A stretch of 64,000 nt of DNA from Escherichia phage RB43: sequence record NC_007023.1; one strand, given 5' to 3'. This document shows, piece by piece, positions 31,287-33,906 of this stretch. The position numbers and the translations under genes are program-made. The first letter of the stretch is position 1, and each line of letters begins with the position of its first letter. The notes beneath the pieces were generated by a model that saw nothing but the letters and a program-made list of their open reading frames with translations, did no database searches and had not been told where the DNA came from.

Positions 31287-31550
31287 TTACGCCTTATCGA
31301 TCACATCGTAAAGTTCGATCAGTTCGTTGTTTTGTTCTTCGAACTCGGTACGCGCCTGGTTGTGATACAGGTTGAACAGCTTGCTAAACGTTTTACCGTC
31401 GATGCCGTAGTCAGTTTTCGCTTTGGATTTGATATCTTTCAGCGTACCCTGATGAATTTCGATCTGGGTTTTGACGTTGGAAGCATCTTTGATCATGTCT
31501 TTGATTGCTTTGGCAATATCAGGGTTTTCTTGCAGTAATTCTACACTCAT
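31287..31550 (-). CDS. dsbA: dsDNA-binding protein DsbA
   Basis: YGIDGKTFSKLFNLYH..ELIELYDVI resembles T4 DsbA; position between rnh and 33. Confidence 0.6.
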   Translation of the reverse strand: MSVELLQENPDIAKAIKDMIKDASNVKTQIEIHQGTLKDIKSKAKTDYGIDGKTFSKLFNLYHNQARTEFEEQNNELIELYDVIDKA

Positions 31551-31559
31551 TTTGTTACC

Positions 31560-32495
31560 TCAAAAATCACTTAATTTTTCATACATACGGACAAGTTTGT
31601 TTTCCATGAAGTATTTCTCCATTTTGGCCTTGTTGCCCGTTTTCGGATTATTGTACGCTTTTTCAATTTCATCTGCAACATCTTTTGGAATAAAATCGAA
31701 ATCTCGTAGTTCTTCGTTTTCTCTGTACCGTGCGGCCCATTCAGGGGTCATGTGTACAGTTGGGTCGTCGGCTTCAAGCCACAATTCAAGTTCGTTCGCA
31801 CGAATTTGCGGTGCTCGTTCACCTTCCACTTTCGTAACAATATAGTCGTTTCTCATTTTAATACAAGCGATACTATCTTTTTTATCGCCCTTAATGATCT
31901 TCATACGTAAATCATTACGAGGTGTACCATACTTCGGCGTAACCCATTTCTTCTGGGTAGGCGACCATTGTCGAACACCTTGATATTTTTGCAGTGCCGT
32001 AAAGTCGCTATCTGCTGATACAATCAGGACTCGCTTACCTTGCGCTACTGCGTTTTTTGTAACGACACCTATAATATCATCGGCTTCTGCGAAGTCAACC
32101 CTCAAGCCTTTGTACGGAAGATTTTCGCGGATCTCGTCGTAAGTCGGGTGAAGGAAACCGTTCAAAAAATCCCAGTCCCATTCAGATTCCGCGTGTTCCA
32201 TTTGTCGTTTCTTTTTGTAGTACCAGGCTTTACTTCTTCGCCAATACTTGTTATCATCAAAGGCTAAGACAATTTCTGGATACTCACCTTTGAATTTAAC
32301 CACGTTGTACCGGATTGTGTCAAGAACAATGTGACGAATAATTTGTTGATTGATGTCTTTCTGGTCTTTCGGCTTGAAGTTGTTCATCAACGTCGCTACC
32401 GAAAGGTTCGATATATCTACACACATCACATCAACAGGATCGTCGTCATTACTCATAAGACTGTTCAGATTGAACATGCTTGCAAATGAAGACAT
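31560..32495 (-). CDS. rnh: RNase H (5'-3' exonuclease, FEN-like)
   Basis: 311 aa colinear with T4 RNase H (ADDIIGV, SADSDF, GDKKDSIA). Confidence 0.85.
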   Translation of the reverse strand: MSSFASMFNLNSLMSNDDDPVDVMCVDISNLSVATLMNNFKPKDQKDINQQIIRHIVLDTIRYNVVKFKGEYPEIVLAFDDNKYWRRSKAWYYKKKRQMEHAESEWDWDFLNGFLHPTYDEIRENLPYKGLRVDFAEADDIIGVVTKNAVAQGKRVLIVSADSDFTALQKYQGVRQWSPTQKKWVTPKYGTPRNDLRMKIIKGDKKDSIACIKMRNDYIVTKVEGERAPQIRANELELWLEADDPTVHMTPEWAARYRENEELRDFDFIPKDVADEIEKAYNNPKTGNKAKMEKYFMENKLVRMYEKLSDF

Positions 32496-32525
32496 ATCAA
32501 TACCTCTTGTTGTTGAATGGTGATG

Positions 32526-32553
32526 ATTATAGTGATCACTTTTTCAAAGTCAA
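32526..32553 (-). promoter_or_regulatory. sigma70-like promoter (TTGACT-N16-TATAAT) for rnh operon
   Basis: Read on minus strand upstream of rnh SD AGAGGT. Confidence 0.5.
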
Positions 32554-32572
32554 TAGATCACTTCAAGATTCT

Positions 32573-32711
32573 GAGCGAAGCGAAGGACACGAACGTAGTG
32601 AGTGTCTAACTACAGAACTACACTTTTAAATTTTTATATTTTATATATAGAGAAAAATGTAGTTTTTGGTATGTTTTTTAACCAATATTACCTATCCGTT
32701 TCGCTTCGCTC
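32573..32711. repeat. 12-bp perfect inverted repeat pair (GAGCGAAGCGAA / TTCGCTTCGCTC) flanking 115-bp AT-rich core
   Basis: Arms at 32573-32584 and 32700-32711; extra CGCTTCG copy at 32719-32725. Confidence 0.7.
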
Positions 32712-32762
32712 ACGGAAACGCTTCGCGTTGTTTTTATTAAATAATATAGATTGGAAGTAGGT

Positions 32763-32791
32763 TTGAAACCCGTAATTCCATCAGCTATAAT
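32763..32791 (+). promoter_or_regulatory. sigma70-like promoter (TTGAAA-N17-TATAAT) for gene 55
   Basis: Near-consensus hexamers 26 nt upstream of gp55 ATG. Confidence 0.55.
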
Positions 32792-32816
32792 GAATGTATT
32801 CAATTTGGAGAATATA

Positions 32817-33332
32817 ATGACTACTAAGATTTATGCAGATAATGATAAGCTGTATCCGGTAATGTGTAAGTGGAAACAGCAGATCCGTGAAACTGGTGAT
32901 CGCAAAATGCCTGATGAACTGGGTATTGCAATCATGAACATCGCTCATGGTTTAGCCCGTCGATACAACTTCAACCGTTATTCCGAAGATTGGAAAATGG
33001 ATATGATCGATGATGGTATTTCCGCTACGATTTCCGGTTTACATAATTTTGATGAAACCAAATATACAAACGTTTATGGGTATATCAACAAGGCTTGCTG
33101 GCAAGCGTTTGTAACCCGCATTCTTTACGAGAAGAAAGAGAACGCGAAAAAATACAAATACTTCCTGGAACACGTTTACGATAGTGACGATACTGATATG
33201 ACCGCGATAGCTGATGAAACTTTCATTCAGGATATCCATGATAAACTTAATCAGTACGAAGAGTCTGCGAAAAAACCTAAAGATAAAATCGAGGTTGTGG
33301 ACGAATCGCCAACTTTGGAAATGTTTCTATGA
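32817..33332 (+). CDS. 55: late sigma factor gp55
   Basis: ATG after GGAG; GLHNFDETKYTN and DETFIQDI colinear with T4 gp55. Confidence 0.85.
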   Translation: MTTKIYADNDKLYPVMCKWKQQIRETGDRKMPDELGIAIMNIAHGLARRYNFNRYSEDWKMDMIDDGISATISGLHNFDETKYTNVYGYINKACWQAFVTRILYEKKENAKKYKYFLEHVYDSDDTDMTAIADETFIQDIHDKLNQYEESAKKPKDKIEVVDESPTLEMFL

Positions 33333-33556
33333 AAATTAAAATTGACCTGAACAAAATTTTAGCAGATGCTGACAACGAAATTGATCTGCTTCCTTACCTT
33401 GTGAAATTAGAGTTGCAGAACGTAGGTGTTCCCGTTATCATCGACCCTACTGATGTACGAGATCCAGACTTCGCTATAGAAAGTGGACGTTTGGACTATG
33501 TAATAAATGCCGATACAATGATCATGGAGATCACTTACTATGAACAAGCAGCATGA
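33329..33556 (+). CDS. hypothetical protein (75 aa)
   Basis: ORF track; ATGA coupling. Confidence 0.45.
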   Translation: MKIKIDLNKILADADNEIDLLPYLVKLELQNVGVPVIIDPTDVRDPDFAIESGRLDYVINADTMIMEITYYEQAA

Positions 33557-33887
33557 AGTATTAGACGAAGTGGCGCACGAGAAAACAGCAACAGAACTTC
33601 GTGAAGAAGAACTGGAATCCCTGAAAGGTACGCGTGTTGAACAGGAAGCGCTACGCAAAGCACAGAAGTATATGCGTAAGAACCGCGCTGAATGGAAACG
33701 ACTTCACAACCACGCTGAAAATGCCCTGTTTGATGGTAACAAAGCACAGTATGTGTACGCTATCAAAAAGATGCGTGATATGCTCAAACAACCATACAAC
33801 GATGAACTGATTGAAACGATGTGGATCACTTCAAATCAACAGCTTAAAGATCTGTTCGTCATGGCTTCTGAAAAATACGGTAAATAA
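33540..33887 (+). CDS. hypothetical protein (115 aa)
   Basis: ORF track. Confidence 0.5.
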   Translation: MNKQHEVLDEVAHEKTATELREEELESLKGTRVEQEALRKAQKYMRKNRAEWKRLHNHAENALFDGNKAQYVYAIKKMRDMLKQPYNDELIETMWITSNQQLKDLFVMASEKYGK

Positions 33888-33906
33888 ACCCCTTCGGGGG
33901 TTTTTG
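33887..33906 (+). terminator. rho-independent terminator
   Basis: AAACCCCTTCGGGGGTTTTT. Confidence 0.6.

Follow-up and report, generated by a model that had tools for sequence, protein, structure and literature searches.

In phage T4, oriE, oriF and oriG are origins that lie near regions where transcription changes strand (PMC3016281, Kreuzer and Brister). Both oriF and oriG combine a MotA-dependent promoter with a downstream unwinding element, oriE has iterons of 12 nucleotides (nt), and the T4 origins have no motif in common; what governs their use is presented as an open question in the same review (PMC3016281). In the T4 record, oriF is at the start of uvsY and its primer is the uvsY transcript. 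oriG, whose primer is antisense to 34, is found beside rnh, 2.2 kb into gene 34, and oriE lies inside gene 5, 3.4 kb from gene 3, with a primer antisense to gene 5. No origin is annotated there near gene 55. The present analysis concerns a 64,000-nt stretch of Escherichia phage RB43 (NC_007023.1; hereafter the window) and, within it, the gap between rnh and gene 55 (32496-32816), the centre of which is a module that recurs at two other places in the genome. To our knowledge, essentially nothing has been established about how replication starts in T4-like phages other than T4.

Two other described systems bear on this module. The published rule for 'extraordinarily stable' DNA mini-hairpins is GCGNAGC. 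Such hairpins are reported at the priming sites of G4, St-1 and alpha3, at RSF1010 ssiA and at N4 promoters, are reported to bind single-strand binding protein poorly and, when a C-GNA-G triloop is joined to tandem G.A pairs, bear the signature of extra-stable hairpins of DNA, not RNA (PMC13037366). Promoter-early stem-loop (PeSL) cassettes are known from RB49/phi1, T4/PST and KVP40/nt-1 (PMC2839356, PMC4122927).

Positions 31500-33900 of the window are 100% identical to HE858210.2 and HE981739.1 (phage RB43, Pseudotevenvirus), and 99.5-99.7% identical to the Citrobacter phages CfP1, Miller, Xman and IME-CF2. The gap is bounded by the complement of the rnh start codon (32493-32495) and by the ATG of gene 55 (32817). 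Its centre, of about 165 bp (about 32570-32730), was found by BLAST of the gap to have two more copies in the RB43 genome, module 2 at about 103.24-103.42 kb and module 3 at about 137.97-138.13 kb of HE858210.2. In a frame based on the window, module 1 is at ~32.6 kb, module 2 at about 103.65-103.82 kb and module 3 at about 138.37-138.53 kb. With the T4-style gene names of the RB16 annotation, module 1 separates rnh from 55. Module 2 lies between gene 3 (minus strand) and a lineage-specific open reading frame (ORF; plus strand), followed by 2, 4 / 53, 5. Module 3 is immediately upstream of uvsY, with 24 on its other side. The genes rnh, 55, 3, 24 and uvsY that adjoin the modules are core genes, and all three modules are placed where the RB43 gene order departs from that of T4. 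The element is a phage origin-like or promoter-associated cis element. An iteron-type origin (plasmid or lambda-like) would have several direct repeats that bind an initiator, beside an AT-rich unwinding region; in each module, two direct 12-mers and one or two inverted ones, together with two tandem half-sites and one inverted half-site, are arranged about a core of 91% AT.

The same three junctions are occupied in RB43, CfP1, RB16, Lw1, the complete 178.8-kb UViG 3300045988_011923 and two contig sets from metagenomes, relatives of Pantoea phage Phynn. Across these seven genomes or contig sets the copy number is always three and the sites are identical, with no presence/absence polymorphism. 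The copy at the rnh-55 junction is also recognisable in Phynn and in Yersinia phage JC221. Down to these two phages the module is more strongly conserved than the promoters that flank it; in JC221 the module aligns by BLAST and the promoters do not.

The modules are exceptional within the 180-kb RB43 genome. All ten genome matches to GA[GA]CGNAG[CT]GA[GA] fall inside them, where about 0.7 would be expected by chance; other GCGAAGC heptamers in RB43 were set aside as ordinary coding sequence. Windows of 50 nt with at least 88% AT occur in the cores of modules 2 and 3 only, and the best such window of module 1, with 86% AT, is at the 99.97th percentile of the genome. Half-site clusters (at least three within 80 nt) are confined to modules 1 and 2. 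Modules 1 and 2 coincide with the two major divergent transcription switches of the genome, which are the minima of cumulative GC skew. Modules 1 and 3 each lie between two outward promoters that match the consensus at 11 of 12 positions; at module 2, gene 3 has a TATAAATA late promoter, and there are otherwise only weak sigma70 matches. In modules 2 and 3, 5 nt separate the last 12-mer from the -35 hexamer, and the corresponding distance from arm to -35 in module 1 is 36 nt. Scanning and inspection of the three modules revealed no convincing sigma70 or TATAAATA late promoter inside the core. The left promoter of module 3 (TTGACC-17-TATAAT, 11/12; L006:27940-27968, positions 137940-137968 of the RB43 record) is an orphan that points leftwards, serves no gene and reads antisense into the late gene 24. 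CfP1, RB16 and UViG 3300045988 have kept this promoter.

The 12-mer reads GA-N1-C-G-N-A-G-N1'-GA-R. Its predicted fold, on one strand, is a GNA triloop closed by C:G and followed outwards by the N1:N1' pair, by G.A twice in tandem and by ordinary flanking pairs; in hairpin A of module 1 these last are T32572-A32584 and C32571-G32585. The rule for mini-hairpins, (G/N)CGNAG(C/N') in which the closing pair is complementary, holds for all 12-mers of RB43 (10/10). Covariation was searched for in IMG/VR and in GTDB genomes with a pattern that allowed N1 and N1' of the second 12-mer to be non-complementary. Among 161 distinct contexts, N1/N1' were A..T in 110, C..G in 50 and non-complementary in one. 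The 12th base and the one that precedes the 11-mer form a Watson-Crick pair in 140 of the 161 viral and cellular contexts. For the next flanking pair the Watson-Crick share is 68-77%, compared to 15% in a control with shifted positions. The N of the loop varies freely (A in 137 contexts, T in 24). The same holds within an alignment of 18 module copies, where the pairs are UA:11/CG:7 for the flank of hairpin A, AU:13/CG:5 for N1/N1' of hairpin B and GC:15/AU:3 for a further pair, with none unpaired; the observed covariation was reached in none of 500 shuffles. The stem flanking hairpin A' has another sequence in Phynn and is still complementary (TTCTA/TAGAA), and the AACGC/GCGTT hairpin at the right end of module 1 shows a compensatory change to AGCGC/GCGCT in UViG 3300045988. 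At that position modules 2 and 3 have a plain 12-mer, without a T run.

A preliminary description of the gap had drawn attention to the inverted repeat; that the repeat is itself the functional unit, be it a stem, a cruciform or a scar, is not supported. The left and right 13-mers are paired in 94% of cells of the alignment, which is no better than in shuffles (179/500 and 134/500 reach it). A long-range stem between the arms was rejected, as it shows no covariation beyond conservation of the motif and as the right-hand 12-mers are swapped in RB16 and Lw1. Because the pairs within the small hairpins co-vary, those between the arms do not, and the order of the 12-mers is not constant, the inverted repeat is read as paired small hairpins: it is one mini-hairpin motif in opposite orientation on either side of the core, and there is no selected long stem. 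The hairpin-prone purine strand is the plus strand to the left of the core and the minus strand to its right. Relative to flanking co-directional genes, this strand is sense in 24 and antisense in 31 cases in cells, and 6 and 7 in viruses, and the viral contexts comprise ten divergent and one convergent, all according to crude ORF calls. The orientation of the module relative to gene 55 also differs among lineages. A role at the level of DNA rather than RNA fits this unbiased strand and variable orientation.

The module changes more slowly than the third codon positions of rnh and 55 and is under purifying selection. Identity between RB43 and its 87%-identity relative UViG 3300045988 is 0.85 in the module and 0.65-0.75 at the third codon positions of the two genes; for RB43 against the Phynn-like phages and JC221, the values are 0.65-0.70 and 0.46-0.52. 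The three copies evolve in concert, as the cores of one genome are 0.81-0.92 identical to each other and orthologous cores of RB43 and UViG 3300045988 are 0.63-0.76 identical. The half-sites, of 7-8 bp, vary by lineage (AACTACA(T)/(A)TGTAGTT, ATGTACTG/CAGTACAT, ATGTCCA/TGGACAT). In each copy they are complementary over 7-11 nt, and they are alike among the copies of one genome, exactly or at most positions. The left half-site is tandemly doubled in every lineage, in a lineage-specific sequence (ATGTAC.., GTGTCCA-ATGTCCA). Half-site change is compensatory as well as concerted, which would fit a hairpin or cruciform around the core, or lineage-specific protein sites.

The arms differ in number and order among the copies. 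In the uvsY copies of RB16 and Lw1 (L011, L014), two right-hand 12-mers stand in swapped order compared to RB43, and the right half of the Lw1 uvsY copy is a mosaic of gene-3-type and uvsY-type copies. These swapped and mosaic arms are direct evidence of exchange (gene conversion) between paralogous modules. The bases flanking the three RB43 copies show no target-site duplication.

The features of the gap are collected in Table 1. Their chance levels were estimated with dinucleotide-preserving shuffles of the gap.

Table 1. Features of the gap between rnh and gene 55 and of module 1 (window coordinates)
Feature	Position	Strand	Remarks
rnh promoter, early sigma70-type, TTGACT-16-TATAAT	-35 32553-32548, -10 32531-32526	-	11/12 match
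Palindrome AGTGATCACT	32531-32540		straddles -10 hexamer and spacer of the rnh promoter; contains GATC
Left arm hairpin A, 12-mer GAGCGAAGCGAA	32573-32584 (element 32570..32586)	+	GA-GC-GAA-GC-GA; purine-rich and hairpin-prone on +
Left arm hairpin B, 12-mer GAACGTAGTGAG in stem GACAC/GTGTC	32591-32602 (element 32586..32606)	+	
Half-site AACTACA, twice in tandem	32608-14, 32616-22	+	
AT-rich core, 35 nt, 91% AT	32623..32657		includes the nearly invariant ATATTTTATATATAGAG (32636-32652)
Inverted half-site TGTAGTT	32658..32664	-	complement of AACTACA
Possible small hairpin TTGGT...ACCAA	32666..32685		predicted in fold; weakly supported
Right arm hairpin A', 12-mer TTCGCTTCGCTC	32700-32711 (element 32696..32715)	-	GAGCGAAGCGAA on the minus strand; extended by CCGT/ACGG
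Hairpin AACGC-TTC-GCGTT (32717-29), then GTTTTTATTA	32717..32739		terminator-like on +; mini-hairpin AACGC-GAA-GCGTT on minus
Gene 55 promoter, early sigma70-type, TTGAAA-17-TATAAT	32763..32791	+	11/12 match
Ribosome-binding site GGAG of gene 55	32807-10, ATG at 32817 (element 32807..32819)	+	from the sequence and the Miller annotation

The preliminary description had noted a divergent gene layout with two near-consensus sigma70 promoters, and both the layout and the divergent pair are borne out by the sequence. Two promoter matches of at least 11/12 occur in 0.07% of gap shuffles (P=0.0007). The -10 hexamer of the rnh promoter is kept in Phynn and JC221, and the CfP1 record annotates a promoter at the site; the gene 55 promoter is kept in Phynn and JC221 as well. 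The reported 12-bp inverted repeat is real and is perfect over 13 bp (TGAGCGAAGCGAA at 32572-32584, TTCGCTTCGCTCA at 32700-32712), a length of at least 13 bp being found in 0.3% of shuffles (P=0.003). The additional CGCTTCG that had been pointed out lies within a further copy of CGCTTCGC at 32719-32726. The 115 nt between the arms are AT-rich as described, with 72% AT overall and 91% in the central 35 nt. The 10-bp palindrome AGTGATCACT exists where it had been placed; it is not significant, since 40% of shuffles hold a perfect palindrome of at least 10 nt. It overlaps the first of two GATCACTT direct repeats (32534-41, 32556-63), and Phynn and JC221 keep its TGATC part only.

The synteny breakpoint relative to T4 that had been proposed at this junction is likewise upheld by the annotated gene orders. 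In annotated relatives, the minus-strand order is 43-regA-62-44-45-rpbA-32-59-33-dsbA-rnh and the plus-strand order is 55-a-gt.4-a-gt.5-47-46. In the T4 record, 55, a-gt, 47, 46, 45.2 and rpbA are all co-directional and rnh adjoins the tail-fibre gene 34, so that the rnh-55 junction is a synteny breakpoint. Overall, the view that a special cis-acting region lies between rnh and 55 is supported.

Small ORFs in the gap (e.g. 32602-32760) were ruled out, as they contain an indel of 1 nt by which RB43 and UViG 3300045988 differ. Some GenBank records annotate a 'hypothetical protein' within the gap (e.g. phi1_146010, Olmo, UPEC03, Banach). In view of this indel between close relatives and of the repeat structure, such proteins are unlikely to be real genes. 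The small hairpin TTGGT/ACCAA was also discarded, having 72% of cells paired and no compensatory change in the module alignment. The last hairpin of module 1 resembles a terminator because a T run follows it. Next to module 2, the ORF on the right has 202 codons' worth of product (202 aa) in RB43-GVA (L005:43493-44101) and 261 aa in RB16 (L035:6029-6814); as the family profile has ~263 positions, the RB43 protein appears C-terminally truncated.

The distribution of the motif beyond RB43-like phages was searched with the bipartite arm GAGCGWAGCGAR-N2-12-GAMCGWAGKGAG. The pattern was found in 53 stretches of IMG/VR viral contigs, with an estimated chance expectation well below 1, and in at least 120 stretches of GTDB genome contigs, with an estimated chance expectation of about 1.5. 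The GTDB matches cover many bacterial and archaeal phyla. In the distant marine T4-like contigs L024, L042 and L066, the element is directly upstream of gene 55 (uvsY-uvsW-x-[element]-55-47). In other marine T4-like contigs it is upstream of uvsY (L029) or beside gene 3 (L065, L034). Where both arms are present (L024, L029), an AT-rich centre of about 75 nt lies between them. None of 80 diverse IMG/VR gene-55 loci carries the motif, and the hairpin upstream of gene 55 is therefore regarded as lineage-restricted.

Several further occurrences were recorded. In two IMG/VR contigs that are not RB43-like (47.9 and 178.5 kb), the bipartite motif lies in a divergent gap (L051:3235-3268, L063:4242-4277), directly upstream of a sigma-factor gene, phrog_351, which is not of the gp55 family. 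IMG/VR contigs L008, L010 and L023, from giant-virus bins of metagenome-assembled genomes (GVMAG-M-3300025767-21), contain GTGC-GAGCGAAGCGAG-CAC, which extends this hairpin perfectly, in numerous copies that form clusters in both orientations, several of them at contig ends. In cellular genomes the hairpin 12-mer x-GA-NC-GNA-GN'-GA-x' often forms tandem arrays with genome-specific spacers of 8-12 nt. Examples among loci L076-L155 come from Calditrichia (L135, L139, L141, L154), Bacteroidales (L101, L117), Halococcus (L079, L091, L131, L144, L145), Thermoplasmata (L137) and Pseudidiomarina (L152). Some arrays directly follow a tRNA gene (L137) or a 6S RNA gene (L152). In Alphaproteobacteria some arrays are inside longer palindromes, GTCATTGCGAG...CTCGCAATGAC. 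No Rfam family matches the bacterial arrays.

The sister genus Slopekvirus has the same gene order and lacks both the motif and the 12-mers. The preliminary description had held that related genomes with the same order and without the repeats would, together with a lack of replication and protein binding at the site, speak against it. Slopekvirus has this order without the repeats; its gaps at rnh-55, 3-orf and 24-uvsY are, for their part, also unusually AT-rich (75-82%), rich in GATC and alike among themselves. In Klebsiella phage Lemur_ER36 these gaps (L196:1476-1779, L197:7187-7602, L198:8088-8391) contain 9, 13 and 5 GATC sites together with tandem early promoters. In 116 records, BLAST finds 3-5 similar places per genome. 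Little weight was given to this similarity, since the tandem early promoters alone may explain it.

Compared to the T4 origins, the RB43 modules show a mixture of likeness and difference. The position of module 3 directly upstream of uvsY matches that of oriF exactly. The correspondence is approximate for module 1, upstream of rnh (oriG is 2.2 kb off), and for module 2, beside gene 3 (oriE is 3.4 kb away). As with oriF and oriG, there are several sites per genome, each with a meltable A+T-rich segment tied to promoters and near strand switches, and the outward or antisense transcription into late genes seen at T4 origins has its counterpart in the left promoter of module 3. Unlike the T4 unwinding element, which is downstream of one promoter, the RB43 core lies between divergent promoters and upstream of both. 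The RB43 copies also differ from oriF and oriG in being 81-92% identical in the core and in having hairpin 12-mers and half-site repeats. MotA and AsiA were not detectable in the assembled RB43 genome by tblastn with the T4 proteins (nothing better than E=2.9), so that the MotA-promoter origins of T4 cannot exist in that form in RB43. The MotA box, TGCTT or AAGCA, is absent from all three modules.

With oriE the modules share repeated 12-nt units near baseplate and tail-completion genes, and in both cases a function is suspected from the repeats, not proven. The T4 iterons, GTTGAAGGTAAT, recur every 24 nt, all direct, inside the coding sequence of gene 5, whereas the RB43 12-mers are intergenic, hairpin-forming and oppositely oriented around an AT core. 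Their sequence is unrelated to GTTGAAGGTAAT, and an identification with the oriE iterons was rejected. No RepEB homologue was detected in RB43, and the sole RepEA match is weak (E=0.009) and antisense within gene 5.

In RSF1010, two ssi signals lie on opposite strands beside an AT-rich segment, and the RB43 arms are arranged likewise. The ssi signals of G4/St-1/alpha3 and RSF1010 (ssiA/ssiB) also resemble the RB43 units in having GNA-triloop mini-hairpins, GCGAAAGC, GCGTTAGC and CCGAAGG, at priming sites (PMC13037366). They differ in acting on a dedicated primase (DnaG, RepB'), whereas the T4-type gp61/gp41/gp59 primosome has no known link to hairpin signals; the RB43 units, in addition, carry tandem G.A pairs and occur in pairs.

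PeSL cassettes are likewise repeated composites, of a strong sigma70-like promoter and a stem-loop, found at module boundaries as recombination substrates (PMC2839356, PMC4122927). PeSLs are numerous, lie in hyperplastic regions and have one terminator stem-loop and one promoter. RB43 has exactly three modules, in the conserved core genome, with a large AT core, half-sites and promoters on both sides. An assignment to PeSL cassettes was rejected, as a terminator-like hairpin is present at module 1 only and the three copies are beside core genes. REP/BIME elements share with the motif the form of short intergenic hairpin units that are single, tandem or in inverted pairs with genome-specific flanks. 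They are species-specific, unlike the hairpin top GA-NC-GNA-GN'-GA, which is constant across phyla and domains. A MITE or other transposable element was rejected on the grounds that there is no target-site duplication and no presence/absence polymorphism, and that the arms vary in number and order.

Tentatively, the best single explanation offered by these sequence comparisons is that the module may be a replication-origin or unwinding module. From the observed anatomy, copy number, positions, conservation, covariation and AT extreme, we infer every step of the following mechanism, including the start of replication at the modules. Outward transcription would feed negative supercoils into the module, and the core, as the easiest-melting DNA of the genome, would then open. 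On each displaced strand an arm would fold into mini-hairpins, which may prevent the bubble from closing and from being coated by single-strand binding protein. Once open, the structure, possibly aided by a lineage-specific protein on the half-sites, would let the primosome enter on both strands, and the primosome or that protein would begin synthesis. An origin was one of three options put forward in the preliminary description, and it has become more plausible with three conserved copies, AT-extreme cores, the switch points, the proximity of uvsY and the lack of MotA.

Several points weigh against an origin. The positional match with T4 is exact for uvsY only, the others being 2-3.5 kb off, and the comparison was made post hoc. 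Switch points and GC-skew minima are not independent evidence of replication, because both track the direction of transcription. The R-loop mechanism of T4 is not directly transferable, because the core is upstream of both promoters. The invariant 17-nt stretch of the core exceeds the needs of an unwinding element. No initiator was found, the ORF beside module 2 (phrog_7322) being the only gene screened; it has no Pfam family, an AlphaFold pLDDT of 66 and no fold match with E below 0.1, and its 16 homologues are restricted to the lineage. Also unfavourable are the absence of the motif from Slopekvirus in spite of the same gene order, its absence from the 80 diverse gene-55 loci, and the presence of hairpin arrays in many bacteria and archaea at places that are not origin-like, such as after tRNA and 6S RNA genes.

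That the module instead belongs to the promoters is the main rival reading, though it appears rather unlikely. Its binding sites or a supercoiling-sensitive structure would co-control the outward early promoters that serve 55, uvsY and rnh and the one for the ORF adjoining gene 3, and could, for example, time the late sigma factor and the recombination mediator. Every copy does adjoin promoters, closely so in modules 2 and 3, but the 5-nt spacing to the -35 hexamer is not kept in module 1, module 2 serves a late gene through TATAAATA and has weak sigma70 matches only, and the left promoter of module 3 lacks a gene to drive. The core, with its 17 invariant nt, and the half-sites, which vary by lineage and are common to the three copies, resemble protein sites, but complementary covariation inside each 12-mer, where N1:N1' takes three forms, is what a folded strand would give and does not fit a protein that binds the duplex. 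Three distant marine contigs of T4-like phages have the motif directly upstream of gene 55, another has it upstream of uvsY, and L051 and L063 have it upstream of a sigma-factor gene other than gp55, all of which would agree with regulation; the 0/80 gene-55 loci would not. Selfish or neutral REP/BIME-like repeats, which would be recombination substrates without a dedicated phage function and would have made the synteny breakpoints through exchange between copies, are an unlikely explanation. They would account for the genome-specific families and tandem arrays of the hairpin in many bacteria, archaea and viruses, for the location of the three modules where the RB43 order departs from T4, and for the inter-copy exchange seen in RB16 and Lw1, and PeSL cassettes provide a precedent for module-shuffling repeats in T4-like phages (PMC2839356, PMC4122927). 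Such repeats are not expected to be fixed at three copies and identical sites without presence/absence polymorphism in seven genomes or contig sets, with no target-site duplications visible at the three RB43 copies, slower evolution than third codon positions, and cores that are the AT extremes of the genome.

It is improbable that the modules encode, three times over, a structured non-coding RNA with a length of about 140-160 nt. The predicted folding energies of the two strands are indeed far below those of shuffles (-51.1 and -49.1 kcal/mol; z about -6), covariation is seen in the local helices as well as in the inner stem, and module 1 is followed by a hairpin and T run that resemble a terminator. 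This element is missing from modules 2 and 3, however, and the module is upstream of both flanking promoters, with no shared internal promoter found in the three modules. The long-range stem is without covariation, the triloop has the signature of DNA (PMC13037366) and there is no strand preference relative to neighbouring genes. In Rfam, the gap has no match at E up to 10 besides chance snoRNA matches in the coding flank, and neither modules 2 and 3 nor the related contigs have a match at gathering score. Least probable by far, to the point of being hardly tenable, is a leftover of the rearrangement that joined rnh and 55, with a fortuitous inverted repeat. The synteny breakpoint relative to T4 is what such an inversion scar would leave, and the scar had been among the options of the preliminary description. 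It is contradicted by evolution slower than that of third codon positions and by the maintenance of three paralogous copies, the module is conserved to Phynn and JC221, the inverted repeat is itself rare in shuffles (P=0.003), and independent genome records exclude an assembly artefact for the paralogous copies.

A wider form of the origin proposal can be stated. The three modules would be the replication origins of MotA-less T4-like phages, built on a universal mini-hairpin, x-GA-NC-GNA-GN'-GA-x', that marks strand opening or priming, and numerous bacteria, archaea and other viruses would use the same hairpin as a structural signal. In this full extent the proposal is doubtful.

No description of the module or of the 12-mer was found in the literature searched, which included papers on the RB43 genome, the review of T4 origins and those on PeSL cassettes, with Petrov et al. 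2006 not covered; nor was a description of the hairpin as a genomic repeat found in it. Beyond the phage, the analysis brings out a hairpin repeat that is very common across the genomes of cells. The RB43 modules give the 'extraordinarily stable' GCGNAGC-type DNA mini-hairpin a natural genomic setting, in which its fold is under selection as judged by covariation. If the modules only regulate promoters or are selfish, they would still explain the breaks of gene order at three sites. The best-understood origins of T4 depend on MotA, which RB43 lacks, and the modules are three precise origin candidates of ~165 bp in this phage.

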